DNA from: Thermoanaerobaculia bacterium
GTDB lineage: Bacteria > Acidobacteriota > Thermoanaerobaculia > Multivoradales > UBA5704
DNA length: 64,000 nt
Direction: 5' to 3'
Assembly (NCBI GenBank): GCA_045807625.1
Contig: JBJMHA010000044.1
Location: 12,319 to 76,318 of the forward strand
Below the pieces are notes generated by a model, which had not been told where the DNA came from, ran no database searches, and was given only the letters and a program-made list of their open reading frames with translations. Below are positions 3,601 through 47,500 of this stretch, piece by piece. The position numbers were made by a program, and so were the translations under genes. Every line of letters starts with the position of its first letter. Positions within the stretch are counted from its first letter, which is position 1.

Positions 3601-6600
3601 GAAGAGGGGGGAGTGGCTCGTCCCGCGTTCCGGCTTCAGCTCTTCGACCAGCTTGTCGAAGGGGAGGTCCTGATGGGCGATCCCCCCCACCGCTCCCTCG
3701 CGGACCCGGCGCAGCAGGGTGCCGAAATCGGGGTCGCCGGCGGCGTTCGTTCGCAGCACCAGCATGTTGATGAAGAACCCGATCAGATCCTCCACCTCCG
3801 ACCGCGTGCGCCCGGCCACGTCGGAGCCGACGACCACGTCGGCTTCGCCGGTGACGCGGTGGAGGAGGGCCACGAAGGCGGCCAGCAGGGTCATGAACGG
3901 CGTCGCCGAGTGGCGCAGGCTCACGGCCCGCACCGCGCGCGCGAGGGGCTCGTCGAGCCGGAACGGGGAGTACACGCCGCGGTGCGTGCGGACGGCGGGC
4001 TCGGGCCGGTCGGCGGGCAGGCGGAAGATCCCTTCCAGGTCCCCCAGCCGTCCGCGCCAGTACCGTAGCTGCGCCTCCAGCACCTCGCCCTGGAGCCACC
4101 GCCGCTGCCAGTGCGCGAAGTCGGCGTACTGCACGGGCAGCTCGCGCAGGGGGGAGGGGCGGCCGCTGGAGAAGGCGTGGTAGAGGCTCACCACCTCGTG
4201 GCGCAGGATGCCCATGGACCAGGCGTCGGAGGCGAGATGGTGCAGCGTCAGCAGCAACGCGTGCTCGCCGGCGGCGAGGCGCACGAGCTGCGCCCGCAGC
4301 AGCGGCTCGGCCGCGAGGTCGAAGGGGCGCCGGGCCGCAGCCACGGCGAGCCGTCGCGCCTCCTCCCCGCGGGGGGCCTCCGGCAGGCCGCTCAGGTCGA
4401 TCTGCGGCAGCGCGACCTCCGCGGCCGGACGGATCACCTGCCGCGGCTGCCCGTCGGCGGCGGGGAACAGGGTCCGCAGGATCTCGTGGCGCCGGACCAT
4501 TTCGCTCAGCACGCGGCGCAGAGCGACGGTCTCCAGCGGTCCGGACAGGCGCTGGAAGACCGGCACGTTATAGGCTGCGGACTCCGGTTCGAGCTGCTGC
4601 AGGAACCAGAGGCGCTGCTGGGCGAACGACAGGGGCAGCTCCTGGTCTCGCGGCACCGGCACGATGGGCGGCGCCTCCAGGCCCTCGCCGGCTCGTACGG
4701 CCCGCTCGATCTCGGCCGCGAGACGGCCCAGCACGGGCGCGTCGAACAGGCTGCGCAGCGGCAGGTCCACCTGGAAGGCCTCGCGGATGCGGGACAGCAC
4801 CTGGGTCGCGAGCAGCGAGTGCCCGCCCAGCTTGAAGAAGTCGTCGAAGACGCCGATCCCCGTCCGGCCGAGGGCCCCTTCCCAGATCTGCGCCAGCACC
4901 TCCTCGAAGACGTTGCGCGGGGCGACGTGCTCGCGCGCCGAATCCCCCTCGTCCTCGCGCGCCGCCAGAGCCGCGCGGTCGACCTTGCCGTTGCGCGTCA
5001 GGGGGAGGAAGTCGAGGATCGCGAACGAGGCGGGGATCATGTAGCCCGGCAGCCGGTCGCCGAGGAAGGCACGCAGGTCCTGCAGGTCGAGGGCTCCCCT
5101 TTCGCGCGCCACCAGGCAGGCAGCGAGGCGCAACTCGCCCGGCGTCCTCTCGCGCGTCACCACCACGGCCTGGGCCACCGCCGGGTGCTGGGCGAGCGCC
5201 GCTTCGATCTCCTCCAGCTCGATCCGGTAGCCGCGGACCTTGACCTGGAAGTCGCTCCGGCCGAGGAATTCGACCGTGCCGTCCGCGGCGCCGCGGGCGA
5301 GGTCGCCGGTCCTGTACATGCGCCCGCCGGGCACGGTGGAGAAGGGGTCGGGGACGAATCGCTCGGCGGTGAGGTCGGGACGGCCCAGATAGCCGCGGGC
5401 CACGCCGGCGCCGGCGATGTAGAGCTGGCCCGGAGCCATGACGGGCGCCGGCCGCAGATGGCGGTCGAGCAGATACGCGCGCGCGTTGGCGATCGGCCGG
5501 CCGATGGGAAGGGTACGGAAGAGATCCATCCCCTCGCCCGCGGTGGCGCGCCGGGTCAGGGCACCCACTGTGGTCTCCGTGGGGCCGTAGTGGTTGAGCA
5601 CCGCGCACTCCGTGCCGGCGGACAGCAGCTCCTCCGTCCACTCCCGGCGCGAAGCCTCGCCACCCAGCACCAGGAGACGGCGGGGCAGGGCCCAGGGCTG
5701 GCCGGCCGTCTGCAGGGCCTGGAGATGCGAGGGGACGATCTTCAGGCAGTCGATGGCATGGTCGCGCAGGTACCCGGCGAAGGCGCGCGGGTCGGTGGCG
5801 GCCTCCTGGGACAGGACGTGCAGCGTGCCGCCGTTCACCAGCGACGGGAACACGGAGGTGTAGCCCAGATCGGCCGCGAAGGTCGACACCATGGCGTACG
5901 AGGCGCCGTCCGGCAGTCCGAGGACCGCGCTGATGGCGCGCGCGTAGTTGGCGAGTTGGCGGTGCTCGACGGCCACTCCTTTCGGCCGGCCCGTGGAGCC
6001 CGAGGTGAAGATGACGTAGGCCAGGTTCTCTGGCCGCGCGCCGCCGTCGAAGGGGAGGCCGTCGTCCTCACCATTCTCGCTGCCGTCGTCCAGCGCCAGC
6101 AACTCGACGCCGGCCGCCGGCAACCGGTCCAGCAGCGCCCGCTCGGTGAGGACGATGCGCGCGCCGCTGTCCTCGATCATCGCCGCCAGGCGTTCGCGCG
6201 GCTGCGCCGGGTCGAGGGGGACGAAGGCGCCTCCGGCCTTGAGCACCGCCAGCGCCGCGACGATCATGCGTTGGGAGCGGTCGAGACAGACGACCGCCCT
6301 CTCCTCGGGCCGGACCCCCAGCGCGTGCAGCCGGCGGGCGAGCCGGTTGGCGGCGCCGTCGAGCTGGGAAAAGTCGAGCCAGGCCTCCACCGCGACGACG
6401 GCGGTCCGCCCGGGCACCCGCCGCGCCTGCCCGGCGAACAGGTGGTGGACGCAGGCGCCGCCGAAATCTCGCTCCTCGCTGCTCCAAGCCGCGAGGAGGC
6501 GGGCGCTTTCGGCTCCGGGCACGAGATCGAGCTCCCCGGCGGCGGCGGCGGGCCGGCGCGCTGCGTCCGCCAGCAGGGTGAGAAAGGCCTCCGCGAGGCG

Positions 6601-7794
6601 CGCGACGTCGCCGGAGTCGAAGCGGGCCGGATCGTAACGCAACTCCCCGCGGAGGCCGTCCTCGCCGGGGGTCAGGACCAGGCGCAGCTTGACGCCGCTC
6701 GTCGCCAAGTGCCAGGCGCGCAGGGGGAACGCCCCGGTGGCGGGAGCCAGGAAGAGCTCGACGGCCGGGGGAGCCGGCTCCTCGTCCTCGCCGGCCGGCG
6801 GCGGCTGGTAGAACTCCTGCCATCTCTCCGCCTCGGCGCTCTCGGCCGCGATCTTCTTGACCAGGCTGGAGAACGGCAGGCCGGCGTCGAACGCCGCTCG
6901 CACCGGCAGAGTGCGGGCCATGGGTCCCATCACCCCCCGGAGCTCCTCGAACCGGCGGCCGTCGAAGACGCGGTGGACGATGATCTCGTCCTGGCCGCTC
7001 CAGCGCCAGAGGAGCGTCTGCCAGGCCGCCAGCAGGAAGTCGCCGTCCTGGACGCCCAGGCCTGCCGTGGCCTCGCCCAGCGCGCGGACGGTCTCCGGGC
7101 CGATCGCGAACGAGGCGAGGCTGTGGAGACCGCGGGGGGCGGCCGTCCGCTCGAAGGGGAGGCGTGGGACGGCCGCGCTGGGCGCGGGCTGCCGGCGCCA
7201 GAACTCGGGGCCTTCGACCTCCGCCTCGTCCTCGATGAGCTGATACTGCCACTCCGAGAACTGCACGTACTGGACCGCCTCCTCCGCGTTCCTGCCAACG
7301 GCCGTCGCCTCGGTTGCGAGCTCCGCGGCGAGGTTGCGCAGCGTCCACTCGTCGGCACAGAGGACGGGCAGAGCGAGGAGCAGGGCACGCCCACCGGCCC
7401 AGGTGCACAGCGTCGCCCGGAGCAGTGGCCCCCGGGCGAGGTCGAGCGCGGGCTCGGGCCGCGAGAGGAGCAACTCGTGCCACTCCCCGGGCGTGCCGGG
7501 GAAGGGCTCAGGCCGGGTCTCGGTCCGCCACTCGAGCTCGCCGGCCTCCTGGACGACCTGGAGGGGCAACTGCATTCCCGGCCGCATCCGGAACGTGGTC
7601 CGCAGACCTTCGTGGCGGGCGACGACCCTCTGCAGAGCCTGCCGGAGCAGGTCCGGATCCACCGGAGCCGGCACCTCCATGGCACACCGCGCCAGGCGGG
7701 AGGGATCCGCGGCGGCAGCCGGCCAGAGACGCTTCTGCTGCGGCGACAGGCGGAACCCGGCGATGGGCTCCCCGGAGACGGTTTCTACGGACAT
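604..7794 (-). CDS. Terminal NRPS, two modules: interface-type C-like domain - A(Asp-like) - T - C - A(Asp-like) - T - TE
   Basis: 2396-aa track ORF with ATG 7794 and TGA 604-606. The translation shows LPVLCAD in place of HHxxxDG and two A domains (LAYVIFTSGSTGRPKG; LAYVLFTSGSTGPPKG; NHYGPTE twice). It also shows two carriers (FFKLGGHSLL; FFALGGHSLL), a C domain with HHLASDAWS and a thioesterase GYSFG. Confidence 0.95.
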   Translation of the reverse strand: MSVETVSGEPIAGFRLSPQQKRLWPAAAADPSRLARCAMEVPAPVDPDLLRQALQRVVARHEGLRTTFRMRPGMQLPLQVVQEAGELEWRTETRPEPFPGTPGEWHELLLSRPEPALDLARGPLLRATLCTWAGGRALLLALPVLCADEWTLRNLAAELATEATAVGRNAEEAVQYVQFSEWQYQLIEDEAEVEGPEFWRRQPAPSAAVPRLPFERTAAPRGLHSLASFAIGPETVRALGEATAGLGVQDGDFLLAAWQTLLWRWSGQDEIIVHRVFDGRRFEELRGVMGPMARTLPVRAAFDAGLPFSSLVKKIAAESAEAERWQEFYQPPPAGEDEEPAPPAVELFLAPATGAFPLRAWHLATSGVKLRLVLTPGEDGLRGELRYDPARFDSGDVARLAEAFLTLLADAARRPAAAAGELDLVPGAESARLLAAWSSEERDFGGACVHHLFAGQARRVPGRTAVVAVEAWLDFSQLDGAANRLARRLHALGVRPEERAVVCLDRSQRMIVAALAVLKAGGAFVPLDPAQPRERLAAMIEDSGARIVLTERALLDRLPAAGVELLALDDGSENGEDDGLPFDGGARPENLAYVIFTSGSTGRPKGVAVEHRQLANYARAISAVLGLPDGASYAMVSTFAADLGYTSVFPSLVNGGTLHVLSQEAATDPRAFAGYLRDHAIDCLKIVPSHLQALQTAGQPWALPRRLLVLGGEASRREWTEELLSAGTECAVLNHYGPTETTVGALTRRATAGEGMDLFRTLPIGRPIANARAYLLDRHLRPAPVMAPGQLYIAGAGVARGYLGRPDLTAERFVPDPFSTVPGGRMYRTGDLARGAADGTVEFLGRSDFQVKVRGYRIELEEIEAALAQHPAVAQAVVVTRERTPGELRLAACLVARERGALDLQDLRAFLGDRLPGYMIPASFAILDFLPLTRNGKVDRAALAAREDEGDSAREHVAPRNVFEEVLAQIWEGALGRTGIGVFDDFFKLGGHSLLATQVLSRIREAFQVDLPLRSLFDAPVLGRLAAEIERAVRAGEGLEAPPIVPVPRDQELPLSFAQQRLWFLQQLEPESAAYNVPVFQRLSGPLETVALRRVLSEMVRRHEILRTLFPAADGQPRQVIRPAAEVALPQIDLSGLPEAPRGEEARRLAVAAARRPFDLAAEPLLRAQLVRLAAGEHALLLTLHHLASDAWSMGILRHEVVSLYHAFSSGRPSPLRELPVQYADFAHWQRRWLQGEVLEAQLRYWRGRLGDLEGIFRLPADRPEPAVRTHRGVYSPFRLDEPLARAVRAVSLRHSATPFMTLLAAFVALLHRVTGEADVVVGSDVAGRTRSEVEDLIGFFINMLVLRTNAAGDPDFGTLLRRVREGAVGGIAHQDLPFDKLVEELKPERGTSHSPLFQVVFNYNSAAGEPPAEPLRSALVVRDFGLAETLVRFDLMLTVQPEGEAFSGAWAFAAELFDVATVERLHARFARLLESALADPDLPLSTLEVLTPDEREQILAGWREPEAPVAPAGLLHELFELQAERHADAPAVVSDGRTLTYGDLDRRANQVAHLLHGLGVGPETPVGLYLDRSLDLVVALLGVLKSGGAYVPMDPMYPKRRLGLTIEAARLGVVLTRSALAEELPAGAFEKVCLDTRAAKIARAPEAPPRPAGLFPESLAYVLFTSGSTGPPKGVAVEHRQIVNYVGGVIHRLGLGACSSFATVSTFAADLGNTSVFAAFATGGCLHVLAERTAGDPDAAADYFTAHPIDCLKIVPSHLMALQSTSRPAPALPRRRLILGGEASYWGQVESLRARAPQLAIANHYGPTESTVGALTFSVDAVPPQGAGAVVPLGRPLPNLRVLLLDPRGGLVPAGTPGELCIEGAGLARGYLHRPDLTAERFLPDPFAPEPGSRLYRTGDLGRLRPDGNLEFLGRIDHQVKIRGFRIEMGEVEAALACHPDVREVAVAARQKEPGETRLVAYLAVRRPGLPETELRGWLKEYLPDYMVPSHFVELESLPLTPNGKLDRSRLPEPGAGPELTRREAAAPRTLLELELLHIWEDLLKMRPIGVDQDFFALGGHSLLVVMLMAKIRKRFGISLPLATLYRAGTVEKLARILADEGGERAPESPLVPIQPLGAKPPLFCVHPLGGEVLCYYALSQHLGPDQPFYGLQAVHLGSGDGSRELAIEDLARQYIEAVRIVQPRGPYRIGGYSFGAKVAFEMAQQLRHAGEELALLALLDGGAPGRKAQSGRLNEGVLVAQELREQARRAGVPLVISFEEITALPREEGIRLALDHGKAAGLVPEELDLPWVERYLAAVKARDLASERYQPEVYPGPVTFFRTVEADREFLDVLHGAGYEVDDLTKGWSRLVEQPLEIHEIPGHHETLLQEPFVQAVATHLAECLGRTVRTDED
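620..1470 (-). other. Thioesterase (TE) release domain
   Basis: GGYSFG motif with nucleophile Ser codon at 1210-1212. It covers the last ~280 aa after the final carrier domain and has GHH near the C-terminus. Confidence 0.85.
1500..1710 (-). other. Peptidyl carrier (T) domain
   Basis: DFFALGGHSLL; phosphopantetheine Ser codon at 1606-1608. Confidence 0.9.
1765..3260 (-). other. Adenylation domain, hand-read code DLTKIGHVGK (Asp-like)
   Basis: Cores LTYGDLDRRANQVA, TSGSTGPPKG (~2775-2805), FAADLGNTS, DCLKIVPS, LILGGEAS, NHYGPTESTVG and LPLTPNGKLDR. The code was read by aligning to GrsA-PheA numbering. Confidence 0.7.
3330..4665 (-). other. Condensation (C) domain, canonical
   Basis: Starts LPLSFAQQRLWFLQQLEP; HHLASDAWS with HH codons at 4237-4242. 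Confidence 0.85.
4710..4920 (-). other. Peptidyl carrier (T) domain
   Basis: DFFKLGGHSLL; Ser codon at 4816-4818. Confidence 0.9.
4975..6450 (-). other. Adenylation domain, hand-read code DLTKVGHVGK (Asp-like)
   Basis: Cores LAYVIFTSGSTGRPKG (~5975-6020), FAADLGYTS, DCLKIVPS, LVLGGEAS, NHYGPTETTVG and LPLTRNGKVDR. Confidence 0.7.
6470..7770 (-). other. C-superfamily domain lacking the catalytic His motif (interface-type, I-like)
   Basis: N-terminal FRLSPQQKRLW. At the HHxxxDG position the sequence is LPVLCADEW (codons 7351-7371). About 430 aa sit directly in front of an Asp-like A domain and directly after the free-standing hydroxylase gene. Confidence 0.7.
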
Positions 7795-24740: not shown

Positions 24741-27700
24741 CCAGCGCTCTCCTGTCCGGAGAGAGCGGCGGATGCCGCCTGCAGCCTGGCCGCGACCTCC
24801 TCGTCGGAGAGTCCTTCGAGCTCTGCGAGCAACCCTTCCAGGTCTTCGGCGGCCGTCTCCTCCCTCCCGTGCGGTGGAGACATGGTCCGCAGCAGGTCGC
24901 ACAGATCCGCGATCCGGTGTCGCTGGTACAACTGCTGGACCGTGAACTCGAAGCCCCTTTCCTTGGCCAGGGCTACCAGTCGCACACTGCGGATCGAGTC
25001 ACCACCGAGAGCGAAGAAGCTGTCGAGCACTCCGACCCGGTCGACCCCCAGCACCTCGGACCAGAGCTCGGCTAGGACGCTCTCCTCGGGTGTCCGGGGA
25101 GCCACGTAGTTGGTCTGCAGCACCGGCCGCTCGGTGCTGGGCGCGGGCAGGGCCTTGCGGTCCACCTTGCCGTTGGCGGTCAGGGGGAAGGCGTCCATGG
25201 GCACGAAGTGCGCCGGAATCATGAAGTCGGGGAGGCGCTCGGCCAGAAACCGGCGGAGGTCGTCGACGCCGGCACTGCCGCCGGTCACGATGTAGGCGAC
25301 GAGACGCCGTTCGCCGCGCTCATCCTCGCGCGCCAGCACGGCCGCCTCCCGTACCGCCGGATGGCCCGCCAGGACGCTCTCGATCTCGCCGAGCTCGATG
25401 CGGAAACCTCGCACCTTCACCTGCTGATCGTTGCGGCCGAGGTATTCCAGGTTGCCGTCCGCCAGGTACCGGACGACGTCGCCCGTTTTGTAGAGTCGCC
25501 CGCCGGGCACCGGCGCGAACGGATCGGGCACGAAGCGCTCGGCGGTGAGCTCGGGCCGCGACAGGTACCCGCGGGCCAGGCCCTCGCCGCCGATGTACAG
25601 CTCGCCGGACATGCCGAACGGCACCGGCCGCGAACGCTCGTCGAGAACGAACAGCCGCGTGTTCGCGATCGGCCGGCCGATCGGTACAGGACCGGCCGGA
25701 AGCGTGCCGGCGGGCACTTCGTAAACGCAACAGCCGACCACCGTTTCGGTGGGCCCATACTCGTTGATCAGGCGGATCTCCGGCGCGACCTGCCGCCACC
25801 AAGCGAGCCCCTCGCCGAACAGAGCCTCCCCGCCGAGCACGAGCGTCCTGGTCCCGACTGCGGCTCCGGCCGCGGCGAGATTGTGCCGCAGCAGCTCGAG
25901 GTGCGCGGGCGTGAGCTTGACCAAGCTGTAGTCCTCGCCGCCGCCGATCGCCCCGGCCAGCCGGGACAGGTCGCCATCGTCAGGGATCAGCCGTACCCGG
26001 CGCCCGGTCGCCAGGGGAGAGAAGAGGCTCGTCACCGTCAGGTCGAAGCCGAGGGGAGAGTGGACCGGCGCTCCCTGGCCCGCCGCGACCGCGTAGGCTT
26101 CCGCGCACCAGGAGAGGTAGTTCACGACGCTCCGGTGGGGCACCATCACCCCCTTGGGCCGGCCGGTCGAGCCCGAGGTGTAGATGACGTAGGCCAGGTG
26201 GTCCTCGCCGGCGCTCGCCGCCAGGTTGTCTGCGCTGCGCTGCGCGACCGCGGACCAGTCGGCATCGAGACGGAGGACCGGGACGTCGCCCGCGGGTAGG
26301 GACGCGGCCAGCGTCTCCTGCGTCAGGAGGACAGACGGACGGGCGTCTTCGACGATGAGCGCCAGCCGTTCCCGCGGATAGGTGGGATCCAGGGGCAGGT
26401 AGGCGGCCCCGCTCTTCAAGACCCCGAGCGCCCCGATCACCATCTCGGGAGTACGGTCGAGATACAGCCCGATCAGGCTCTCCGGGCCCACCCCGCGGCT
26501 GCGCAATTCGTGGGCGAGCTGATTGGCCTTCCGGTTCAGCTCGGCGTACGTTAGCCGCGCTCCGTCGGCCTCCACCGCGACGGCTGCGGGGGAGAGATCG
26601 GCCTGGCGCTCGAAGAGACGATGCACGGCGTTCGCGCCCTCCGCCCGGCCAGCGCGCGTATCGTTGAGCGTCACCACCAACTCGTGCTCTTCCTCCGTGC
26701 CCAGGATCCGCAAGTCGGCGATCGGAGCGCCGGGAGCGTCGAGCGCACTGGCGACGATTTCACGGAAGCGGAAGGCGAACGCCTGGAACGCCCTCTCCGG
26801 GAACAGTCCTTCGAGAGATTCGACACGGATGGTCAGCGCGCCATCCCGGGCGATGCACGTCAGCTTCAGGCGGCAGGGCGCGAGCGGTCCCCGCAGATCC
26901 GCGAGAGAGAGCTCCAGCTCCCGGGCTGCGCGAGCGGAGGGCCAGGGGAGGAGCTCGAAGCCGGGGGACCAGTCGCGGACCGGCGCCATGGGCTCCCAGT
27001 GCTCCTCCGGCACGAAGGAATCCTGCCCTTCGACCGTTTCGCGAACCTGCTCGTCCAGGCGGGCCACCGCTTCGGCGAAGGAGGTCGCCGTGGTGAAACG
27101 GCCCTGCACGGGGAGGGCGCTGGCGAAAGGACCCACCGAAGCGCGTAGCGGCTCGTACTTCCTGCCATCGCAGACCAGGGCGATCGCGGGCGGCGCGCTG
27201 CCCCCTCCCAGACGCGTGAGCAGGACGGTCCAGGCGGCGAGCAGGAAGGATTCCACCCCGAGCCCCGACGCTTCGATCCGGGCCGCCGTGTCGGAAGGGA
27301 GCGGCAGCTCGAAAGTGTGGACTGCCGCCGCTTCCGAGGGGCCGGTCATCGCCTCCAGGGGGAGGACGGTCCGGGATGAGGCGCCCTGGCCCTGCCAGCG
27401 TTGCTTCGCCTCCGCGGCATCCTCCGATTCGAGCAGCTCGTGCTGCCATTCCGAGAACTGGAGATACTGCACGATCTCCTCTTCACTCTCCTTCTCCGGG
27501 TGGTCGATCAACTCGGCCAGGTCGCCCAACAGGTTGCCGAAGCTCGCGGCGTCGGCCGTGAGGGCGGAGCAGGAGAGGGCGAGGACGTGCTCCCGCTCGT
27601 CCAGGCGGAACAGCGTCGCGTCGATCAACGGGCCGCGCTCGAGGTCGCAGGCGGGTTCCGGCAGGTCCGCAGACCACGGGCCCTCGATCTCTCGCCAGTT

Positions 27701-27949
27701 CACCGCCGCGTCTTCGCGGACGCTCTGGACCGGAATCCGGATTCCCGGCGTGCGGTGAAAGACAGTGCGCAGGGCCTCGTGGCGCGCCGCCGCCCGCTGC
27801 AGGGCCGTCCGCAGGGCCATGGCTTGGAGCGGGCCCCGGAGGCGGACGGCGCAGCGGGCGCGGCAGGCGTCACGGACACCCCGGGCATGCAGCAGCCAGA
27901 GCCAGCGCTGCTGCGGTGAAAGCCGGAACCCATGAATCTCGTCGGACAT
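24737..27949 (-). CDS. NRPS, one module: interface-type C-like domain - A(Asx, Asn-like code) - T
   Basis: 1070-aa track ORF with ATG 27949 (GGAG 5 nt upstream) and TGA 24737-24739. It has N-terminal FRLSPQQRWLW, SCSALTAD in place of HHxxxDG, LAYVIYTSGSTGRPKG, FFALGGDSIR and an acidic helical C-terminal tail. Confidence 0.92.
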   Translation of the reverse strand: MSDEIHGFRLSPQQRWLWLLHARGVRDACRARCAVRLRGPLQAMALRTALQRAAARHEALRTVFHRTPGIRIPVQSVREDAAVNWREIEGPWSADLPEPACDLERGPLIDATLFRLDEREHVLALSCSALTADAASFGNLLGDLAELIDHPEKESEEEIVQYLQFSEWQHELLESEDAAEAKQRWQGQGASSRTVLPLEAMTGPSEAAAVHTFELPLPSDTAARIEASGLGVESFLLAAWTVLLTRLGGGSAPPAIALVCDGRKYEPLRASVGPFASALPVQGRFTTATSFAEAVARLDEQVRETVEGQDSFVPEEHWEPMAPVRDWSPGFELLPWPSARAARELELSLADLRGPLAPCRLKLTCIARDGALTIRVESLEGLFPERAFQAFAFRFREIVASALDAPGAPIADLRILGTEEEHELVVTLNDTRAGRAEGANAVHRLFERQADLSPAAVAVEADGARLTYAELNRKANQLAHELRSRGVGPESLIGLYLDRTPEMVIGALGVLKSGAAYLPLDPTYPRERLALIVEDARPSVLLTQETLAASLPAGDVPVLRLDADWSAVAQRSADNLAASAGEDHLAYVIYTSGSTGRPKGVMVPHRSVVNYLSWCAEAYAVAAGQGAPVHSPLGFDLTVTSLFSPLATGRRVRLIPDDGDLSRLAGAIGGGEDYSLVKLTPAHLELLRHNLAAAGAAVGTRTLVLGGEALFGEGLAWWRQVAPEIRLINEYGPTETVVGCCVYEVPAGTLPAGPVPIGRPIANTRLFVLDERSRPVPFGMSGELYIGGEGLARGYLSRPELTAERFVPDPFAPVPGGRLYKTGDVVRYLADGNLEYLGRNDQQVKVRGFRIELGEIESVLAGHPAVREAAVLAREDERGERRLVAYIVTGGSAGVDDLRRFLAERLPDFMIPAHFVPMDAFPLTANGKVDRKALPAPSTERPVLQTNYVAPRTPEESVLAELWSEVLGVDRVGVLDSFFALGGDSIRSVRLVALAKERGFEFTVQQLYQRHRIADLCDLLRTMSPPHGREETAAEDLEGLLAELEGLSDEEVAARLQAASAALSGQESAG
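24890..25100 (-). other. Peptidyl carrier (T) domain
   Basis: SFFALGGDSIR; Ser codon at 24995-24997. Confidence 0.9.
25150..26640 (-). other. Adenylation domain, hand-read code DLTKVGEVGK (Asp/Asn family, Asn-like)
   Basis: Cores TSGSTGRPKG (~26141-26200), LGFDLTVTS, LVKLTPAH, LVLGGEAL, NEYGPTETVVG and FPLTANGKVDR. Confidence 0.6.
26650..27925 (-). other. C-superfamily domain lacking the catalytic His motif (interface-type, I-like)
   Basis: LSCSALTADAAS at the HHxxxDG position (codons 27551-27574). It follows the C-TauD fusion protein encoded 16 nt upstream. Confidence 0.7.
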
Positions 27950-27954
27950 CTCTT

Positions 27955-27958
27955 CTCC
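27955..27958 (-). promoter_or_regulatory. Putative Shine-Dalgarno (GGAG)
   Basis: Plus ctcc at 27955-27958, 5 nt upstream of ATG 27949, in the 16-nt gap 27950..27965. Confidence 0.5.
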
Positions 27959-27965
27959 GCGCGGC

Positions 27966-30764
27966 TCAGGCCTGGAGGTCGTCGAAGCTGGTCATCTCGC
28001 CCATGGCGACGAGGATCTTGCGTTCACCGGTGAACGGGTTGCGACCGTGGGCCGTCAGCAGGTTGTCGAGCATCATGACGTCCCCCTCCTGCCAGGGGAA
28101 CGAAACCTCCAGCGAGCGGTAGGCCGCGAGGACCTCCGCCATCTCCGCATCCTCGATGACGCCTCCGTCGCCGAACCGGCACTGTCTGGGCAGCTCCTCT
28201 TGTCGGAAGACGGAGAGCAGCGACTGGCGGGTGAACGGGTCGAGGCAGGAGATGTGCCAGTGCTGGGCCTGGTTGAACCAGGACATGGCATCCGTCTTCG
28301 GATCCCGGACCACCGCCGGGCGGAAGGCATAGGTCTTCAGCCGGTCCTCATCCAGCCACTCGAACTGGAGGCGCTGCTCGGCGCAACGCCCTGCGACCTC
28401 TTCCTGCTCGTCAATCTGCAGGACCGCCCTCCAGTCCAGCCCCAGCCCCGTGCCATAGGTGCGTACGTACTGCACCTGCAGCTCGGCGAAGCGGTCGACC
28501 AGCTCGGGGCGGAGCCGCTGGTACACCTGCCGGCTGTCGACGATCGGCGTCTCGCCGCCGATCTCCGGCGCCTTGGCGCAGCAGAAGAAGATCTTCCGCG
28601 GCCAGCGATGGTTGAAGGAGTTCTCGTTGTGCCACAGGAGCTGTTGATCGGGGGGGAAGAACACCGGCGTGTAGACCTTGCCGCTCACCGACTGGCGGGG
28701 GTGCTCGCCGTTCTCGTTGAAGAGATCGGAGCAGAATGACGAGGCCAGCCGTTCGAAGGGCTCGGGCGAGTCGATGCCGAATCCCCGGAAGAGGATGCCG
28801 CCATGCCGCAGGAGGTCCGCTTCCAGGGCCTCGCGATGGCTCACCACCCAATCCACCAGATCGATGCCGGGCAGAGCGGGCCGCAGCACCAGGGGCAGGG
28901 TCTGCCCCTGAGAGAGGAGCTCGCGGATGACGACCTCGCCGCCCGGAATGGCCACCGCTTTGGGCTTCATGCTCCGGAGCTTGGAAAAGTCCGGCTGCGG
29001 GCGTCCGCCCTCTGCCTGGTGCTGTTTCTTGTCGGTTTGCATCAAGGCCTCCATCAGTTCTCCGACGTGGGCATGGGGACGGGCCGTCGCTGCCCGCATC
29101 AGACTCTCGAATTCGGAGCCGAGCCGGGCGATCGTGCCCTCGGAGAACAGGTCGGTTCGGTAGTTGGTCCAGCCCGTGAGCCCCGCCGGCAGATCCCACA
29201 GGGCCAGCGTGAGGTCGAGGTTGGCGGCTGTATTGTCCACCTCGATGGAGCTGAGCGTCAGCTCGGGGAGCTCGACCCGGCCCTCCGGTGCGTTCTGCAG
29301 GATGAGTTTGGCCTGGAACAGAGGAGGGTGGCTGAGGCTGCGCTCCACCTGGAGCCCTTCCACCAGCCGGTCGAAGGGCAGGTCCTGGTGGGAGTAGGCT
29401 TCGAGCGTCACCTGCCGGATGCGGGCCAGCAGCTCGCGGAAGGTGGGATCTCCGCTCAGGTCCACCCGCAGCACGAGCTGGTTGACGAAGAAGCCGATGA
29501 GCCCCTCCGTCTCGATCCAGTTCCGGTTCGCGACGTCGGTGCCGATCAGCATGTCCTTCTGCCCTGAACGGCGGTGCAGCAGCAGCGCGAAGACCGCCAG
29601 GAGCGCCATGAAGAGCGTCACCCCCTCACGGCGCGCCAGAGCCTTGAGCGGCTCGGCGATGGCCGCATCGAGGCTGAGACGACGCGTCGCCCCGCGAAAG
29701 CTCTGGATCTCCGGGCGCGGCCGGTCGGGGCGAAGGTCGAGCAGACCGGGAGCTCCCTGGAGCCGGCCACGCCAGTAGGAGAGCAGCCGCTCTCCCTTCT
29801 CGCGCAGCCACTCGCGCTGCCAGTGCGCGAAGTCGGTGTACTGGACGGGCAACTCCGCAAGCTCGCGACGGTTCCCGGACATGGCAGCCATGTAGAGCGC
29901 CGTGAGCTCCCGCACCAGCACGCCGAGCGACCAGCCGTCGCCGGCGATGTGGTGCAGGAGGACGATCAGCACATGCTCCCGCGACTCCATCCGCAGGAGC
30001 ATCGAACGCAGGAGAGGACCTCGGGCGAGGTCGAACGGACGCCGGGACTCCCGCGCCGTCAGGATACGGCTCTGTGCCTCGCGCTCACCCGCGCCCAGGC
30101 CGGACAGGTCGACGATAGGGAGAGGGAGGGCTCCGGGAGGACGGACCTCCACCACCGGACCTCCGTCCCGGCTGGGAAACGACGACCGCAGGATCTGGTG
30201 GCGGCGCACGACCTCGGAGAGGGCCCGCCGCAGGGACGTGACGTCGAGCCGCCCCTGCAGCCGCACGGCCAGGGGGATGTTGAAAGCCGGGCTCCCCGGC
30301 TCCAGATGATCGAGGAACCAGAGGCGTTGCTGGGCGAAGGAGAGCGGCGGCGGGATCCCCGCGGGCCGCCGCGGGATGGGCGCCACCGTTTCCAGCCCCG
30401 TGTCCCGGGTCTCGGCGATGCGAGCGGCCAGGCCGGCCACCGTCGGACCGGCGAAGAAGTCGCTCAACGAGAGGTCGGCTCCCAACGATGCGCGAAGCCG
30501 CGAAAGCACCTGGGTCGCCAGCATCGAATGGCCGCCGAGGTCAAAGAAATTATCGTTTACGCCCACCCGGTCGAGGGCCAGCACGTCGGCGACGATCCCC
30601 GTCACCAGCTCCTCGACGGAATTGCGGGAGGCGGCATAGGCCGCCGCGAGATCCGGACGGGCACGGCGTTCCCGCGCCGCAATCCGTTGGGCCAACTGCT
30701 CGGGATCCGACAGCTCGGTCGCGATCCTTTGCAGCAGGGAGGCTCGGGGACTCCTGCTCAGCAT
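27966..30764 (-). CDS. NRPS fragment with fused hydroxylase: T - C - TauD/TfdA-family Fe(II)/2OG dioxygenase domain
   Basis: 932-aa track ORF. ATG 30764 overlaps the upstream stop by 7 nt (ATGCTGA). It has FFDLGGHSML and HHIAGDGWS, then a ~340-aa TauD domain with WHNENSF and LTAHGRNPF. Confidence 0.92.
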   Translation of the reverse strand: MLSRSPRASLLQRIATELSDPEQLAQRIAARERRARPDLAAAYAASRNSVEELVTGIVADVLALDRVGVNDNFFDLGGHSMLATQVLSRLRASLGADLSLSDFFAGPTVAGLAARIAETRDTGLETVAPIPRRPAGIPPPLSFAQQRLWFLDHLEPGSPAFNIPLAVRLQGRLDVTSLRRALSEVVRRHQILRSSFPSRDGGPVVEVRPPGALPLPIVDLSGLGAGEREAQSRILTARESRRPFDLARGPLLRSMLLRMESREHVLIVLLHHIAGDGWSLGVLVRELTALYMAAMSGNRRELAELPVQYTDFAHWQREWLREKGERLLSYWRGRLQGAPGLLDLRPDRPRPEIQSFRGATRRLSLDAAIAEPLKALARREGVTLFMALLAVFALLLHRRSGQKDMLIGTDVANRNWIETEGLIGFFVNQLVLRVDLSGDPTFRELLARIRQVTLEAYSHQDLPFDRLVEGLQVERSLSHPPLFQAKLILQNAPEGRVELPELTLSSIEVDNTAANLDLTLALWDLPAGLTGWTNYRTDLFSEGTIARLGSEFESLMRAATARPHAHVGELMEALMQTDKKQHQAEGGRPQPDFSKLRSMKPKAVAIPGGEVVIRELLSQGQTLPLVLRPALPGIDLVDWVVSHREALEADLLRHGGILFRGFGIDSPEPFERLASSFCSDLFNENGEHPRQSVSGKVYTPVFFPPDQQLLWHNENSFNHRWPRKIFFCCAKAPEIGGETPIVDSRQVYQRLRPELVDRFAELQVQYVRTYGTGLGLDWRAVLQIDEQEEVAGRCAEQRLQFEWLDEDRLKTYAFRPAVVRDPKTDAMSWFNQAQHWHISCLDPFTRQSLLSVFRQEELPRQCRFGDGGVIEDAEMAEVLAAYRSLEVSFPWQEGDVMMLDNLLTAHGRNPFTGERKILVAMGEMTSFDDLQA
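27969..28990 (-). other. Integrated TauD/SyrP-like beta-hydroxylase domain
   Basis: H-x-E in WHNENSFNHRW (codons 28623-28631); distal His in LLTAHGRNPF (28047-28049); GERK. It is a paralogue of the free-standing gene 7819..8868. Confidence 0.88.
29050..30375 (-). other. Condensation (C) domain, canonical
   Basis: PLSFAQQRLWFLDHLEP; HHIAGDGWS (codons 29934-29954). Confidence 0.85.
30420..30630 (-). other. Carrier (T) domain with no cognate A domain; presumed acceptor of the FkbH-derived unit
   Basis: NFFDLGGHSML with Ser codon at 30525-30527. It lies 80 aa from the N-terminus, immediately downstream of the FkbH domain encoded on the previous polypeptide. Confidence 0.8.
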
Positions 30765-40000: not shown

Positions 40001-41539
40001 AGAGCGTTCCGCCAGCAGGGCGACCGTCTGCTCGGGCCCCGCGCCCGCCTGGGAGAGGCGGTCCGCCAACCGGTCAGCCAGGGCGTCCAGCTCCGCATAG
40101 GTGAGCCTCCGGTCGCCGGCTTCGACCGCCACCCGGCCGGGGGATCGCCGGGCCTGCTCCGCGATCAGCTCGGCGACGCTCCGGTCCGCTGGATAGGGCG
40201 CGGCGGTCCGGTTGAAGCCGGTCAGCAGCTCTCTCTCCTCGGCCTCCCCGAGGGCCGGCAGATGGCTGCCGGGGCGCAGCGGATCCTTGATGGCGGCGGC
40301 CAGGAGGGCCTGGAAGCCCGTGGCGAGCCGCTCCAGGGTTGCCGCGGGAACGACCTCGGGATCCGCCGCCAGTGCCAGCGTCAGCCGTTCGCCGAGGGAT
40401 CCCGCGGCGAGCCGCAGGTGGAACCTCTCGAGCACGGCCCGGCGCAGCCGGGGTGAGATCGTCAGACTCCCCGCCGTCAAGGGGCCCGGGTCGCGGTCGA
40501 AGTCGAAGAGGAACGGAAAGAACCCGCCCTCCTCCGGCCACTCGAAGAACTCCTGCCACTCCGCAAGCGAGCTGCGCGCCTCCGCAATCCGCCGCGCCGC
40601 CTCCGCGAAGGACGGGTCGTCGGCGAGCCCGACCGCGACCGGCAGAGAGCGGGCGAAGAGTCCCAGAGCCTCGTCCAGGCCTTCGTACCTCCGCCCCGCG
40701 AAGGCGACCCCCACCGTGATCCCGCCCTCGCCGGTCCGCTTCTCCAGAAAGATTCTCCAGGCGGCCAGGAGGAAGTCCTCGACGTCTATGCCGGCAACTC
40801 CCGCCGCCCGGAGGAGCCGTTCCTCCAGGCCGGGTTCCAGGAAAAGCTCCCGGACCAGCGGCCAGAAAGCCGAGCCGGGAGGGGCCGGTGTGGAGAAGGG
40901 GAGCCTCGGCGCTTCGACCGACGCCGGATCCCAGGACCGCCAATAGCTCCGGCCGTCGGCCGTATCCTCCGCGATCAGGAGGTCGTTGAGGACCTCGGAC
41001 ACGTCGGCGTATTGAACAGGATCGGGTCCCGGATCATCCGGCGGCTGCAGGGCGGCCGCCAGCTCGCGAGCCAGGTTGGCCATGGACAGGAGATCGGCAC
41101 AGAGCGCCGGCAAGGTGAGCAGAAGGGCATGCCGTCCGGGGGAGAGCTCCTGCAAGGTCGCCCGCAGGACCGGACCGGAGGCGAGATCGAACGGCTGGCC
41201 AGCGATCTTCAAGAGCAGCGCTCCGGGATCCTCTTCCGCGGTAACGCGGAGCCACTCGACCGCCGGCTCCGCGATGACCTGGACGGGATCGGTCAGCCCC
41301 GGGATCTGCCGGTAGACGGTGCGCAGGATCTCGTGCCGCGCCACCACCGATTCCAGGGCCTGCCGGAGCGCCGCCGGATCGAGGTCCCCCGTGAGCAGCC
41401 AGGCTCCCTGAACGAGGAATCCACTCCCGCCGCTCGCCTTCAGCAGCGACCACGCGCGCCGCTGCTGTGGAGAGAGCTGAAAGCCCTGGTCGGTCGTCGG
41501 GGGGGCCGCCGGGAGAACGTTCGTCGGTGCGCCTGTCAC
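37022..41539 (-). CDS. NRPS, one module: interface-type C-like domain - A(Asx, Asn-like code) - T - E
   Basis: 1505-aa track ORF. The GTG start at 41539 forms a GTGA overlap with the upstream stop (41536-41538), and no in-frame ATG is nearby. It has FQLSPQQRRAW, LPALCAD, LAYVIYTSGSTGRPKG, FFELGGDSIL and the epimerase motif HHLLTDAVSW. Confidence 0.9.
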   Translation of the reverse strand: MTGAPTNVLPAAPPTTDQGFQLSPQQRRAWSLLKASGGSGFLVQGAWLLTGDLDPAALRQALESVVARHEILRTVYRQIPGLTDPVQVIAEPAVEWLRVTAEEDPGALLLKIAGQPFDLASGPVLRATLQELSPGRHALLLTLPALCADLLSMANLARELAAALQPPDDPGPDPVQYADVSEVLNDLLIAEDTADGRSYWRSWDPASVEAPRLPFSTPAPPGSAFWPLVRELFLEPGLEERLLRAAGVAGIDVEDFLLAAWRIFLEKRTGEGGITVGVAFAGRRYEGLDEALGLFARSLPVAVGLADDPSFAEAARRIAEARSSLAEWQEFFEWPEEGGFFPFLFDFDRDPGPLTAGSLTISPRLRRAVLERFHLRLAAGSLGERLTLALAADPEVVPAATLERLATGFQALLAAAIKDPLRPGSHLPALGEAEERELLTGFNRTAAPYPADRSVAELIAEQARRSPGRVAVEAGDRRLTYAELDALADRLADRLSQAGAGPEQTVALLAERSPETLVALLGILKAGAAFLPLDSFQPTERLAAILADARPRLILAHDRLTHRLPVLPVETLSLDGALEADPAPSPCAPVVVGPQQLAYVIYTSGSTGRPKGVMVPHQGLTNYLSWCRDAYSLAPGSVVPVHSPLGFDLTLTSLFAPLLAGGTVLIIPEADGIEALSSLLAGGREYNLVKLTPAHLDGLRHLPDAFATAPRLRSVILGGEALRGESLSQWRASSPSMRIFNEYGPTETVVGCSVYELPPGPPAPGPVPIGRPIANAALYLLDASFAPVPPGTPGELYVGGDGVARGYSGLPGLTAERFVPDPFDGRPGRRLYRTGDLAALDQEGELVYLGRRDHQVKIRGFRIELGEIEAAAGRQPGVLEAVVTATLGSEGQRRLVCYVVLGPGEELRAPGLREALERELPRYMVPSSFVILPSLPLTSNGKVDRSALPPPDERGKSGSTYEAPRNETEKLLAELWAEFLKLDRVGIHDNFFELGGDSILALQVVSRAQRAGVRLVPRQVFQHQTVAALAAAAGSVSGPEEQQGTVVGPVPLTPIQRRFFEQVTVDLHHYNQSLLLALHQVGSPASWERALCALAAHHDALRLRFTPGEDGWRQECLGLEVGIPLAWIDLSAVPAAGRGAAIESAAAALQGSLDLTRGPLTRVAVFDSGPGESGRILLVIHHLLTDAVSWHVVLEDLEALLLGFERGEEPRLPAKATSFQRWAGLLAGQAQSPETAAELDYWAQATWHDVSPLPQDRAGENDEASADIVSASLEPEETRAFLQEMPERFQVGAGQALLAAFASALARWAPGTTVGIDLEGHGRDNDNDEIGLPVDLTRTVGWFTTLYPMLVDLSEIDGPTGALRQIDRRMREVPRQGIGYGLLRFGGAAAVRLRELPQPEMVFNYLGRLGTGAASALFGAAGESVGPTKSPRQRRSHVLEVNAAVAGDRLRVALIYSRGLHRRESIEALATDILKALRALLAGPSETALDDERLSHLLENVEFEI
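37040..38400 (-). other. Epimerization (E) domain
   Basis: PLTPIQRRFFE start; VIHHLLTDAVSWHV (HH codons 37993-37998). About 500 aa after the carrier Ser. Confidence 0.85.
38440..38650 (-). other. Peptidyl carrier (T) domain
   Basis: NFFELGGDSIL; Ser codon at 38546-38548. Confidence 0.9.
38700..40190 (-). other. Adenylation domain, hand-read code DLTKIGEVGK (Asp/Asn family, Asn-like)
   Basis: Cores TSGSTGRPKG (~39700-39755), LGFDLTLTS, LVKLTPAH, VILGGEAL, NEYGPTETVVG and LPLTSNGKVDR. Confidence 0.6.
40200..41480 (-). other. C-superfamily domain lacking the catalytic His motif (interface-type, I-like); no hydroxylase at this junction
   Basis: LTLPALCADLLS at the HHxxxDG position (codons 41093-41113). 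It has the same architecture as the domains at 6470..7770 and 26650..27925. Confidence 0.65.
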
Positions 41540-44500: not shown

Positions 44501-47500
44501 GGCGCGCCGCTGTCCGTCAGCGCGAAGGTGAGGCGTTCCAGGGGGTGGGCGGGATCGAGGGGCAGGTAGCAGGCGCCCGTCTTGAGCACCGCCAGGATGG
44601 CGACCACCATGTCCGCCGACCGTTCCAGACAGAGGCCCACCGGCTGCCCCGGACGGAGCCCCTGGGCGAGCAGGTGGCGGGCGAGCCGGTTGGCCCGCCC
44701 ATCCAGCTCCCGGTAGGTGAGCCGTTCACCGCTCGCCGTAACGGCCATCGCCTCGGGAGCCCGGTCCACCCGTTCCTCGAAGCGCCTGGGCAGGGGAGAG
44801 GACGGGCCACTCTCGCCCGGGATCGCCATGGACGAGACCTGGACCCGCTCGGCCGGATCGAGGATCTCCAGGCCCTCGACCGGCGCCTCTAGCCGCGAGG
44901 CGGCGCTCGCCAGCAGAACGCGGAAGCGGCGCAGCATCCGCCGGACCTCCGGCTCGGACAGCACCGCGTTGTCGTAGGCCAGGTCGAGAACGATCCTGCC
45001 GGGGTCTGGGGTCACGGCGAGCCGCAGCTTGAACCGGTCGCTCCGTGAGCTCTCCCGCTCGACGGACCAGCGGACATCCGCGGTCTGCAGCGGCGGACGG
45101 ATCGCCCGCGCCTCGAACTGGATGGGCGGCCAGCCCTCGGCGGCGCTCTCGTAGAGCTGCTGCCATCCCGCGTGTTCCCGCAGGACCTCCTCGGTACGGC
45201 GGACGGTCACGGCCAGCGGCTCCTCCTCGCTCACCCGCAGGACCACCGGCAGATGCCGGGCCAGGGAGCCCACCGCAGCGCCGAGCGGCTCCAGGGTCCG
45301 TCCCGGGAATGCCACACCCACCGCGATCTCCTGGCGGCCGGCAAGCCGCGACAGCAAGAGCTGCCAGGCGGTGAGGAGGAAGGCCGTGAGGGACGCACCG
45401 GTCGCTCGCGCGGCAGCCGCGAGCCCGTCCGAGGTCTCGAAGTCGAGGGTCTCGCCCACGTCCTGTGGCATGAAGCCGGCGCGGCCTCGCTCCTCGAACG
45501 GGAGCTCGACGTCCCAGAGCTGAGGCCGCGCGTGCTCCCGCCAGTACCGGCGGGCCTCCGCCGACGCCTCCGAACGGAGGATTCCGGCCTGCCATGCCGC
45601 CAGGAGGGGCCAGGGTGGAGCCGGCGGAGGCGGGCTTCCACCTTCCACCAGAGCTCCATACAGGAAGGCCGTTTCGGCCAGCAGATTCCAGAGCCCTTCG
45701 CCGTCCAGGGCGAGGGCCGGAGCGCTGACCTCCAACCGGTAGACGTCCTCTCCCAGGCTCTCCAACTGGAACGCCAGCGCGCCGGGGGCGAGGTGAGGAT
45801 GGCGCTCGCGGGCCTGCCGGACCGCCTCGTGGAAGGCCTCGGCATGGAGCGGTCCTTCGAGCCGGGCCGAGCATTCCGTGAGGTGAGGCCCTGCGAGCGG
45901 CGCAGGCGAAAGAGTCTCTGAAGGAAGGGGGGCGGAGAGCGCCCGTTCGAGGTCGCGTGCCAGGATCTCCCGGATGCTCGCGAGGCGTTCCTCGCGCCGT
46001 CTCCGCTCCGCACCGGCGATCGTTTCCAGGAGGTCCGCGACCCGGGCGCCGGAGGACTCGGGGATCGCCTCCAGGAGCAGAGCCAGATCCTCGATCAGGG
46101 AAGCGGCCGTGGCCGGCTCGAACCGTCCGCCGTCGTAGGTCAGGCGCAGGGAGAGCCCGCGCCCCGGCACGGCCAGCAGGCTCAGGGGGTAGTTGGTCCG
46201 CGTCCCATAGCGGACCTCCCGGATCTGGAGGTCGCCGTCCGCGCGGCGGAGGGCGGCGTCCACCGGATGGTTGACGAAGGCCAGGATGGAATCGAACAGG
46301 GGCCCGCCGCCAGGGATCTCGCTCCAGCCCTGGATTTCGAGCAGGGAGCTGCCCTCGTGACGGCGCATCTGGAGCTGGCGGGCCTGGTGTTGCTTGAGCC
46401 AGGGGAGGAGCCCTTCTCCGGTCCTCACCCGGACCCGGACGGGAAGGCTGCTGACGAAGAGGCCGACCATGGATTCCACCCCTTCGAGATCGTCCGTCCT
46501 GCCGGATGTCGCGGCTCCGAAACAGACGTCCTCACGACCGGTGCGGTGGCTCAGGACGACGGCCCAGGCGGCTTGTAGGAGGGTGCTGACGGTCAATTGG
46601 CTCCGGCGGGCGAAAGCCTGCAGCGCTTCGGTGCGGTCCGGCGGTAGCGAGACTCGAGCTTCCCCGTGCTCCGCCCCCCGGTCCGCCGCCGGCCGCTCGC
46701 GGTCCCCCGGCACGCGGGTGGGCGAGCGCAACCCCGCCAGCTCGCGCCGCCAATACTCCTCCGCCTCCTGGAGATCGCGGTCGCGCAGCCGGTCGATGAA
46801 GTCCCGGTAAGGGCGGACGGTCTCCAGGCGCGGCTCGATCCCCTGGCGCAGGGCCTGGTAGACCACCACCACGTCCCGGAGGACGACGGCCACCGACCAG
46901 GCGTCCATCAGGATGTGGTGATAACTCAGGACGAAGCCGCGGAGCCCCGGCTCCAGGTCGAAGAGGGCGAGCCGCATCAGCGGGGGGGCGGACATCTCGA
47001 AGCCGCGCTCGCGGTCCTCGCGAAGGAAGGCCGCGACCCGTTCCTGGCGCGCCTCTGGCGCCACCGCCCGCCAGTCCGACTCCTCGATGCGCAGCTCCAC
47101 CTGCTTCAGCACGGCCTGGACGTTCCGCCCCTGGCGATCGGTGAGGAAGGCCGTCCGCAGGACCGGATGGCGCTCCACGACGCGCAGCCAAGCGCGGCGG
47201 AACGCGGTCGGGTCGAAGCCGCCGCCCAGCGCGAGCTCTCCGCTCAACTGGTCGAAGTAGAGGCCGGACCGCGGGTTGGCCAGGCTGTGGAAAAGCATCC
47301 CTTCCTGGAGCGGCGAGAGGGGATAGACGTCCTCGACCGCGCCGGCGCCGCCGACGTGGTCCAGCACCTCCGCGAGCTCTCCCGGCCCCAGCCCCGGCAC
47401 CGCGAAGCGCTCCGGCCCGGTGCCGTCCCCCGCCCGGGCCTGCGCCGGCTCCGGGCCGCGCGCCGCCGCAGCCAGCTCCGCGACCGTCTGGCGCTCGAAG

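Follow-up and report, generated by a model that had tools for sequence, protein, structure and literature searches.

Reitz et al. 2019 reportedly described an integrated aspartyl beta-hydroxylase (IbetaH_Asp) together with an interface (I) domain in proteobacterial siderophore nonribosomal peptide synthetases (NRPSs). In such systems (cupriachelin, taiwachelin, serobactin, potashchelin, variochelin, alterobactin), a protein of the order (ACP or T)-C-TauD is followed by one that opens with C-like-A-T, and positioning of the hydroxylase by the I domain is a published proposal. The I domain is a recognised subtype of the condensation (C) domain, listed as "I (interface)" among the standard C subtypes of NRPS Motif Finder and antiSMASH 8; an experimental test of its mechanism was not found in the literature searched. 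The potashchelin synthetase has the order FAAL-ACP-C-TauD-C-A(Asp)-PCP... (PMC7100376), and the cyanochelin paper places beta-hydroxy-Asp at C-TauD/I-A-T modules, where the slash marks a boundary between polypeptides (PMC12628792). According to a 2022 review, TauD domains in NRPSs always adjoin Asp-selective A domains (PMC8949500). We analysed a 64,000-nucleotide stretch (the window) of contig JBJMHA010000044.1 from a Thermoanaerobaculia bacterium, in which the C-TauD/I arrangement, already known elsewhere, is found as a further case at the junction of two proteins, g5 and g6. These two proteins very probably make up one functional NRPS module on two polypeptides, in which the I domain would bring the hydroxylase to carrier-bound Asn. 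Less ordinary, to a modest degree, are the predicted Asn partner, the very large hybrid cluster, an I domain without adjacent hydroxylase in g3, and a truncated copy in cis in g2.

The domain map of the window was made with Pfam and with hidden Markov models (HMMs) built from the window's own domains. The features of the g5-g6 junction are as follows.

27966-30764, minus strand: g5, 932 amino acid residues (aa), T-C-TauD
30411..30617, minus strand: T (carrier) domain of g5, aa 50-118, with the serine motif GGHSM at 30522-30536; Pfam PP-binding 57 bits and own HMM map
29016..30359, minus strand: condensation domain of g5, aa 136-583, with HHIAGDG intact at 29934-29954; Pfam Condensation 314 bits
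27969..28922, minus strand: C-terminal TauD/TfdA-type Fe(II)/2-oxoglutarate hydroxylase domain of g5, aa 615-932; Pfam TauD 156 bits
28623-28631 and 28032-28058, minus strand: TauD motifs HNE and LTAHGRNPF of g5
27950..27965, minus strand: g5-g6 intergenic spacer, 16 nucleotides, with GGAGAAGAG resembling a ribosome-binding site; read directly
24737-27949, minus strand: g6, 1070 aa, C-like-A-T
26660..27949, minus strand: N-terminal I domain of g6, aa 1-430, C fold; Pfam Condensation (PF00668) 128 bits over aa 10-309
27551-27574, 27908-27928 and 27443-27469, minus strand: motifs SCSALTAD, GFRLSPQQ and QYLQFSEWQ of the g6 I domain
25160..26614, minus strand: adenylation (A) domain of g6, specificity code DLTKVGEVGK, Asn-type (E322)
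24884..25087, minus strand: T domain of g6, GGDSI at 24992-25006, the presumed site that holds Asn during hydroxylation

The TGA stop codon of g5 is followed by exactly 16 nucleotides, gccgcgcggagaagag, and then by the ATG of g6 at 27949. A preliminary description, made from the letters of this DNA, had noted the integrated TauD domain with HNE and LTAHGRNPF at the end of g5, the 16-nucleotide gap, and a C-fold domain of about 430 aa at the start of g6 in which SCSALTAD replaces HHxxxDG. All of this was borne out by the Pfam matches, by the motif positions and by the alignment, in which SCSALTAD of g6 falls at the HHxxxDG position. The T domain of g6, set at 24890..25100 in that description, is present with slightly different bounds, and the DLTK-type A domain assigned there to Asx is refined here to Asn-type. 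The residues that bind iron and 2-oxoglutarate, namely H, E, H and R (HxE...H..R), were invariant in 67/67 aligned TauD domains and are intact in g5.

To separate I domains from ordinary C domains, HMMs of both families (Iext and Cext) were made from external sequences only, with no window sequence among them. The g6 I domain scored 345 bits with Iext and 113 bits with Cext, and the N-terminal domains of g3, g6 and g10 together gave 345-361 bits on the I-family model versus 113-144 on the ordinary C model. The nine standard-type HHxxxDG C domains of the window showed the reverse, 229-261 versus 489-596 bits, the C domain of g5 being sorted with ordinary C domains (Cext 591 versus Iext 236 bits); the separation exceeded 200 bits in both directions. 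The DCL-like g4 C1, g2 C1, g7 C, Cy and E domains were low on both models, with the C model still preferred. Members of the I family share G[FY]RLSPQQ at the N-terminus, LPALCAD instead of HHxxxDG, and QYxQFSEWQ; these motifs are maintained across several phyla. The catalytic His is kept in 0/80 members and the Asp in 80/80. In a neighbour-joining tree (Poisson correction) of 181 C-family domains, taken from the window, 82 external loci and two proteobacterial clusters, the I clade comprised 80/80 His-less C-like domains with no ordinary C domain inside (bootstrap 62%, and 89.5% once two low-scoring rogue sequences were pruned). This clade holds g3, g6 and g10, CcsI of cyanochelin B, a variochelin-type Variovorax domain and a Janthinobacterium domain. 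Clustering with ordinary active C domains had been named beforehand as the outcome that would speak against an interface assignment; g3, g6 and g10 were found in the purely His-less clade instead. Membership of the g6 N-terminal domain in the known interface (I) subtype of the NRPS condensation superfamily is thus supported at the level of sequence, where chance is excluded as the source of the match.

The AlphaFold2 (AF2) model of the g6 I domain (predicted local distance difference test score 88.9, predicted template-modelling score 0.90) shows a complete C fold, with template-modelling (TM) scores of 0.75-0.85 to Txo, TycC, LgrA and the glycopeptide X domain. Its sequence matches in the Protein Data Bank (PDB) are C domains, for instance Txo1 at 1e-20; the PDB search found no entry more than 25% identical to it and no solved I-domain structure. 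One may ask if such a domain could be a non-canonical yet active condensation domain, given that its C fold is complete and that a few C-family members function without the first His. Both histidines are, however, missing in 80/80 members, and an active I domain would be superfluous, because the upstream protein already brings an intact C domain for the junction; we consider condensation activity of the I domain hardly credible. The X domain (PDB 4TX2, 4TX3, 6M7L), among the top matches of the g6 I domain (sequence E = 1.4e-18; fold TM 0.80-0.83), offers a parallel for a non-catalytic role: it has a C fold without condensation activity and recruits trans-acting oxygenases to a carrier-bound substrate. 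It differs in recruiting cytochrome P450s, in being located C-terminally in the last module, behind T, and in having different motifs. The X domain is therefore to be regarded as a functional analogy from another subfamily than the I domain.

Among described systems, the top annotated match of the g6 I domain in the plasmid collection was the N-terminus of BAU16012 (CcsI), encoded on plasmid 2 of Leptolyngbya sp. NIES-3755 (AP017310), with 30.6% identity over 99% of the query. The cyanochelin B locus was mapped as C-A-T-C-A-T-C-TauD/C-like-A-T. Its CcsFGH/CcsI junction has the same C-TauD end, the same short intergenic gap and the same His-less C-like-A-T beginning (LPALCAD in CcsI), and its cluster is likewise a hybrid of polyketide synthase (PKS) and NRPS with a thiazoline/thiazole-forming module. 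In contrast, the partner code of cyanochelin B is Asp-type (DLTKIGHVGK) and its product a beta-hydroxy-Asp siderophore, whereas the code of g6 is Asn-type. The g5 hydroxylase is 48% identical to fused cyanobacterial Asp-partner hydroxylases such as that of L. boryana pLBX, and falls in a separate clade. Plasmid pLBX itself carries both C/TauD/I-A-T and C-TauD/I-A-T, beside an acylase and a TonB receptor. On a Variovorax plasmid, a PKS-T-C-TauD protein is followed by I-A-T, in agreement with the published VarG with embedded TauD (PMC10999976). A Janthinobacterium siderophore cluster has C-TauD/I(LPALVAD)-A-T, and its I domain belongs to the same clade as those of the window. The LPALVAD domains of Variovorax and Janthinobacterium are more distant, with 128-214 bits on an I-family HMM versus 480-502 for g3, g6 and g10. 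The proteobacterial IbetaH_Asp systems differ from g5-g6 in their Asp substrate, their iron-chelator products and the TonB-receptor genes nearby. In the preliminary description, the junction had been likened to beta-hydroxy-Asp siderophore NRPSs of the alterobactin/cupriachelin type. As to the arrangement of hydroxylase and interface domain, which is known from that type, the comparison holds, by the clade and by the genomic association given below; the partner, in contrast, is predicted to be Asn and not Asp, and the closest relatives are cyanobacterial and acidobacterial.

Linkage between I domains and TauD was examined by an I-domain alignment scan with one genome per species, which gave 572 loci; the best 80, picked by I-domain patterns alone, were mapped. 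TauD directly precedes the I domain in 60 of the 68 external I-A pairs with the upstream domain in view, and in none of 135 ordinary C-A pairs at the same loci. The genomic coupling of I to TauD is thus near-exclusive. Nearly all external I domains (74/76) are N-terminal on their own polypeptide, preceded by a protein with C or C-TauD at its end. The latter position would also suit a different explanation, namely that the His-less C-like domain is an inter-subunit docking element or structural relic that keeps the C:A platform while the upstream C domain acts in trans, the TauD neighbourhood being a by-product of the site at which the gene was split. Such a relic agrees with the separate polypeptides, with the upstream protein always ending in C or C-TauD, and with g3 and the eight external cases that have no adjacent hydroxylase. 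It fits poorly with the contrast of 60/68 to 0/135, with the normal C domains of ordinary split modules at the same loci, and with the retention by the I family of its own conserved motifs across several phyla. We therefore hold a mere docking relic to be unlikely and prefer a hydroxylase-recruiting role of the I domain. For TauD matches of Burkholderia sp. YI23 and of a Tistrella mobilis plasmid, no I domain was found within the flanks examined, and these loci were left out.

A-domain codes were read by alignment to the GrsA-PheA reference positions; the reference reproduced DAWTIAAICK. In Stachelhaus codes, E322/V330 is the signature of Asn and H322 that of Asp. The codes of g3, g6 and g7 are Asn-type, and those of both g10 A domains Asp-type. 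After external I domains, the codes were Asp-type in 33, Asn-type in 14, His-type in 5 and other in 8 cases. The hydroxylases vary together with these codes. The TauD domain of g5 belongs to a five-member clade (bootstrap 100), of which the other four members all precede I-A(Asn-type), fused or free-standing. The stand-alone hydroxylase g9, located upstream of g10, belongs to a 23-member clade (bootstrap 100), in which the partner code, where known, is Asp-type in 17/17 cases. The two clades are sister groups, with 45% identity between g5 and g9. Since the hydroxylase clades sort with the partner codes, the two hydroxylases of the window are most likely dedicated, as predicted from sequence, that of g5 to Asn on g6 and g9 to Asp on g10.

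With IbetaH_Asp enzymes the g5 TauD domain shares the TauD/TfdA fold with a 2-His-1-carboxylate iron site and 2-oxoglutarate-binding Arg, and the fusion after a C domain; it departs from them in that its partner A domain is predicted not to select Asp. Because the g6 code is Asn-type and the clade of the g5 hydroxylase is sister to the 23-member Asp-associated clade, the g5 TauD domain is predicted to represent an Asn-associated sister group rather than IbetaH_Asp. The nearest relative of g9 is the fused TauD of L. boryana pLBX (62% identity), and 19 of the 23 members of its clade are fused, in a tree without reference sequences of the stand-alone aspartyl beta-hydroxylases (TbetaH_Asp). With g9 free-standing inside a mostly fused clade, switches between fused and free have taken place in that clade, and the status does not follow the tree here. 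This switching matters for predictions of stereochemistry from gene organisation. For genome mining, TauD plus an I domain alone should not be read as a beta-hydroxy-Asp siderophore, and Asn versus Asp appears predictable from the clade of the hydroxylase.

The proposed course of events at g5-g6 would be as follows. The A domain of g6 would load L-Asn, as predicted, onto the T domain of g6. The I domain would take the place of a C domain beside A and, as a platform without catalytic function, bind the C-TauD end of g5, so that the Fe(II)/2-oxoglutarate hydroxylase could reach the carrier-bound Asn and hydroxylate it at C-beta. The intact C domain of g5 would then join the donor on the g5 T domain, a glycerate-derived unit with the upstream chain, to beta-hydroxy-Asn; coupling of the g5 T-bound donor to g6 T-bound (hydroxy)Asn is what this C domain should perform. 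We infer hydroxylation on the carrier because cupriachelin/SyrP-type enzymes (PMC8949500) and HynE (PMC12819058) are reported to act on the carrier-bound residue. SyrP (Asp), HynE, CloD and PflD (Asn) share the TauD-type fold and its chemistry, with T-bound Asp or Asn as substrates. They differ in being described as free-standing, and the parts available of the literature searched report no dedicated I domain in their partner NRPSs.

Timing is not fixed by sequence, and TauD might instead hydroxylate free Asn before activation, like AsnO, or the finished peptide, with the A domain selecting the hydroxylated residue; free-Asn hydroxylases, AsnO and OcfG, do exist (PMC8471579). Yet the hydroxylase of g5 is covalently fused beside the very C domain to which the g6 carrier is presented, reports on related enzymes describe activity on carrier-bound residues, and the g6 code is the canonical Asn code, identical in g7, which has no I domain. 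Hydroxylation of free Asn or of the peptide is accordingly judged highly unlikely, and hydroxylation of Asn on the g6 carrier, with the hydroxylase presumably in contact with the I domain, is preferred.

Several points weigh against this preferred course. Eight of the 68 external I-A pairs, and g3 in the window, have no adjacent hydroxylase, and the I domain can therefore exist without a partner gene beside it. The Fisher p value of 4e-43 for the I-TauD association is an upper bound on significance, because the external loci are related to each other. The Asn specificity of g6 is based on the 10-residue code alone. The tree is a neighbour-joining tree with moderate support for the whole clade, which is anchored on cyanochelin, variochelin-type and Janthinobacterium homologues and not on the cupriachelin, alterobactin or delftibactin reference I domains; a plasmid search with the Variovorax I domain gave three records only, the cupriachelin and alterobactin references not being among them. 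Finally, the PDB and the literature searched yielded neither an experiment nor a solved structure with an I domain touching a hydroxylase.

The literature searched contained no account of an Asn-directed integrated TauD/I pair, and at least 14 public loci have I-linked Asn-type A codes (14/60 external), their hydroxylases lying in clades of their own. Cyanobacterial Asn-type cases were considered as laxaphycin-type beta-hydroxy-Asn clusters and ruled out, as those use cupin hydroxylases. We give about even chances to the proposal that the g5 hydroxylase and the g6 I domain represent a branch of the integrated beta-hydroxylase/interface system that is directed at Asn and so far undescribed. Such a branch would give carrier-bound beta-hydroxy-Asn in non-siderophore peptides, with a dedicated downstream C subtype (g7 type, PHPISDG) and with one hydroxylase shared in trans with the I-A(Asn) of g3.

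The C domain of g7 (23214-24557, minus strand; PHPISDG at 24123-24143) is of a distinct subtype, with Pro for the first His and low scores on the C and I HMMs. Of the four best relatives (37-46% identity), three (loci L059, L025 and L033) directly follow I-A(Asn-type)-T modules, and among 20 C domains after I-A(Asp-type)-T there is none like it. C domains of the g7 type may be specialised for beta-hydroxy-Asn donors, or may modify them.

The I domains of five external loci (L008, L014, L021, L034, L058) precede His-type codes (DSALIAEVWK), each with a stand-alone TauD, and four of these five hydroxylases form a clade of their own (bootstrap 100). For further external I domains, the code that follows is of Gln, Glu or unknown type. 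The I family therefore serves substrates beyond Asp.

All three arrangements known elsewhere occur in the window: C-TauD/I (g5/g6), C/TauD/I (g8/g9/g10) and C/I (g2/g3). The preliminary description had counted three I-like domains; these are the full-length ones of g3, g6 and g10, each in the order I-A-T, and a fourth, truncated one lies inside g2. The features concerned are listed below.

6496..7761, minus strand: N-terminal I domain of g10, LPVLCAD at 7351-7371, followed by an Asp-type A domain (DLTKVGHVGK); Iext 355 versus Cext 144 bits
7819..8868, minus strand: stand-alone TauD hydroxylase g9, HNE at 8476-8484 and LTAHARNPF at 7885-7911; Pfam TauD 167 bits
8977..10326, minus strand: C-terminal active C domain of g8, HHIAADG, which hands over to g10 across g9
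40226..41491, minus strand: N-terminal I domain of g3, LPALCAD at 41093-41113, followed by an Asn-type A domain (DLTKIGEVGK), T and E; Iext 361 versus Cext 142 bits
41620..42960, minus strand: C-terminal C domain of g2, preceding the g3 I domain (C/I arrangement)
44836..45852, minus strand: truncated I-like domain of g2, aa 2345-2683, APALALDG at 45700-45723; Iext 218 versus Cext 88 bits

Gene g9 is located between the C-domain end of g8 and the I-domain start of g10, and the logic proposed for g5-g6 could apply there with a stand-alone hydroxylase, as g8 C/g9 TauD/g10 I-A(Asp)-T. At g2 C/g3 I-A(Asn)-T-E, the same logic would operate without adjacent hydroxylase: none is encoded beside the g3 I domain, the whole window having only two TauD genes. 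The C/I layout of g2/g3 recurs in 8 of the 68 external I-A pairs. One assembly line with a fused, a stand-alone and no adjacent hydroxylase, and with Asn- and Asp-type partners, is a natural test set for how the I domain recruits the hydroxylase and for what sets substrate choice. The I-like domain of g2, possibly a relic or else a cis variant, is without its N-terminal segment of about 100 aa and is flanked in cis by an intact C domain on one side and a Thr-type A domain on the other.

Ten co-directional genes on the minus strand nearly fill the window (G+C about 70%) and constitute a hybrid PKS/NRPS assembly line. Besides g5 and g6, they are as follows.

52757-63754, minus strand: g1, ...A-T-C-A-T-C-A-T-Cy-A(Cys, Ox)-T, cut by the window end
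41536-52884, minus strand: g2, KS-AT-KR-DH-ACP-C-(truncated C-like)-A(Thr)-T-C
37022-41539, minus strand: g3, C-like-A-T-E
30758-37021, minus strand: g4, C-A(Gln)-T-C-FkbH
21321-24902, minus strand: g7, C-A-T, start likely at 24740
8911-21303, minus strand: g8, KS-AT-KR-ACP-C-A-T-C-A-T-C
7819-8868, minus strand: g9, stand-alone TauD
604-7794, minus strand: g10, C-like-A-T-C-A-T-TE

The C-terminal 577 aa of g4 (aa 1511-2087; 30761-32491, minus strand) are an FkbH domain (NCBIfam TIGR01686, 305 bits versus a cutoff of 147), with no Pfam match. The T domain of g5 is the carrier of a C-FkbH/T module split across g4 and g5, and is probably loaded with a glycerate-derived unit. With such a unit on this T domain, the C2 domain of g4 (32489-33829) would need to form an ester, and the product of the cluster may be a depsipeptide.

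The closest relatives of the g6 I domain are distant, with at most 41% identity besides one fragment of 8% coverage, and come mostly from Acidobacteriota and cyanobacteria. Protein word-index searches with g6 returned short, mostly partial proteins, none of them a named classical siderophore NRPS. Neither a TonB receptor nor another siderophore-uptake gene was visible within the window. Directly downstream of the TE-bearing g10 lies the start of an ADOP-family duplicated permease gene (2-592, minus strand; 243 bits to TIGR03434, covering its first 188 profile positions). Such permease genes are a hallmark of Acidobacteriota, and this one may encode an exporter. Because of this gene start at 592, and because the nearest relatives are Thermoanaerobaculia and Pyrinomonadaceae, the cluster is probably acidobacterial.

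We know of no substrate for the A-domain codes DVLFAGLVVK, DPRHFGFQAK, DIWESTADNK and DAEEIGCITK of the cluster. A frameshift at the start of g1 was considered and ruled out, as the open reading frame runs past the window end. Within g1 (52757-63754, minus strand), residues of about 2315-3621 form Cy-A-T with the Cys code DLYNMSLIWK and an Ox domain of nitroreductase type placed within the A domain, and a thiazole is therefore expected in the product.

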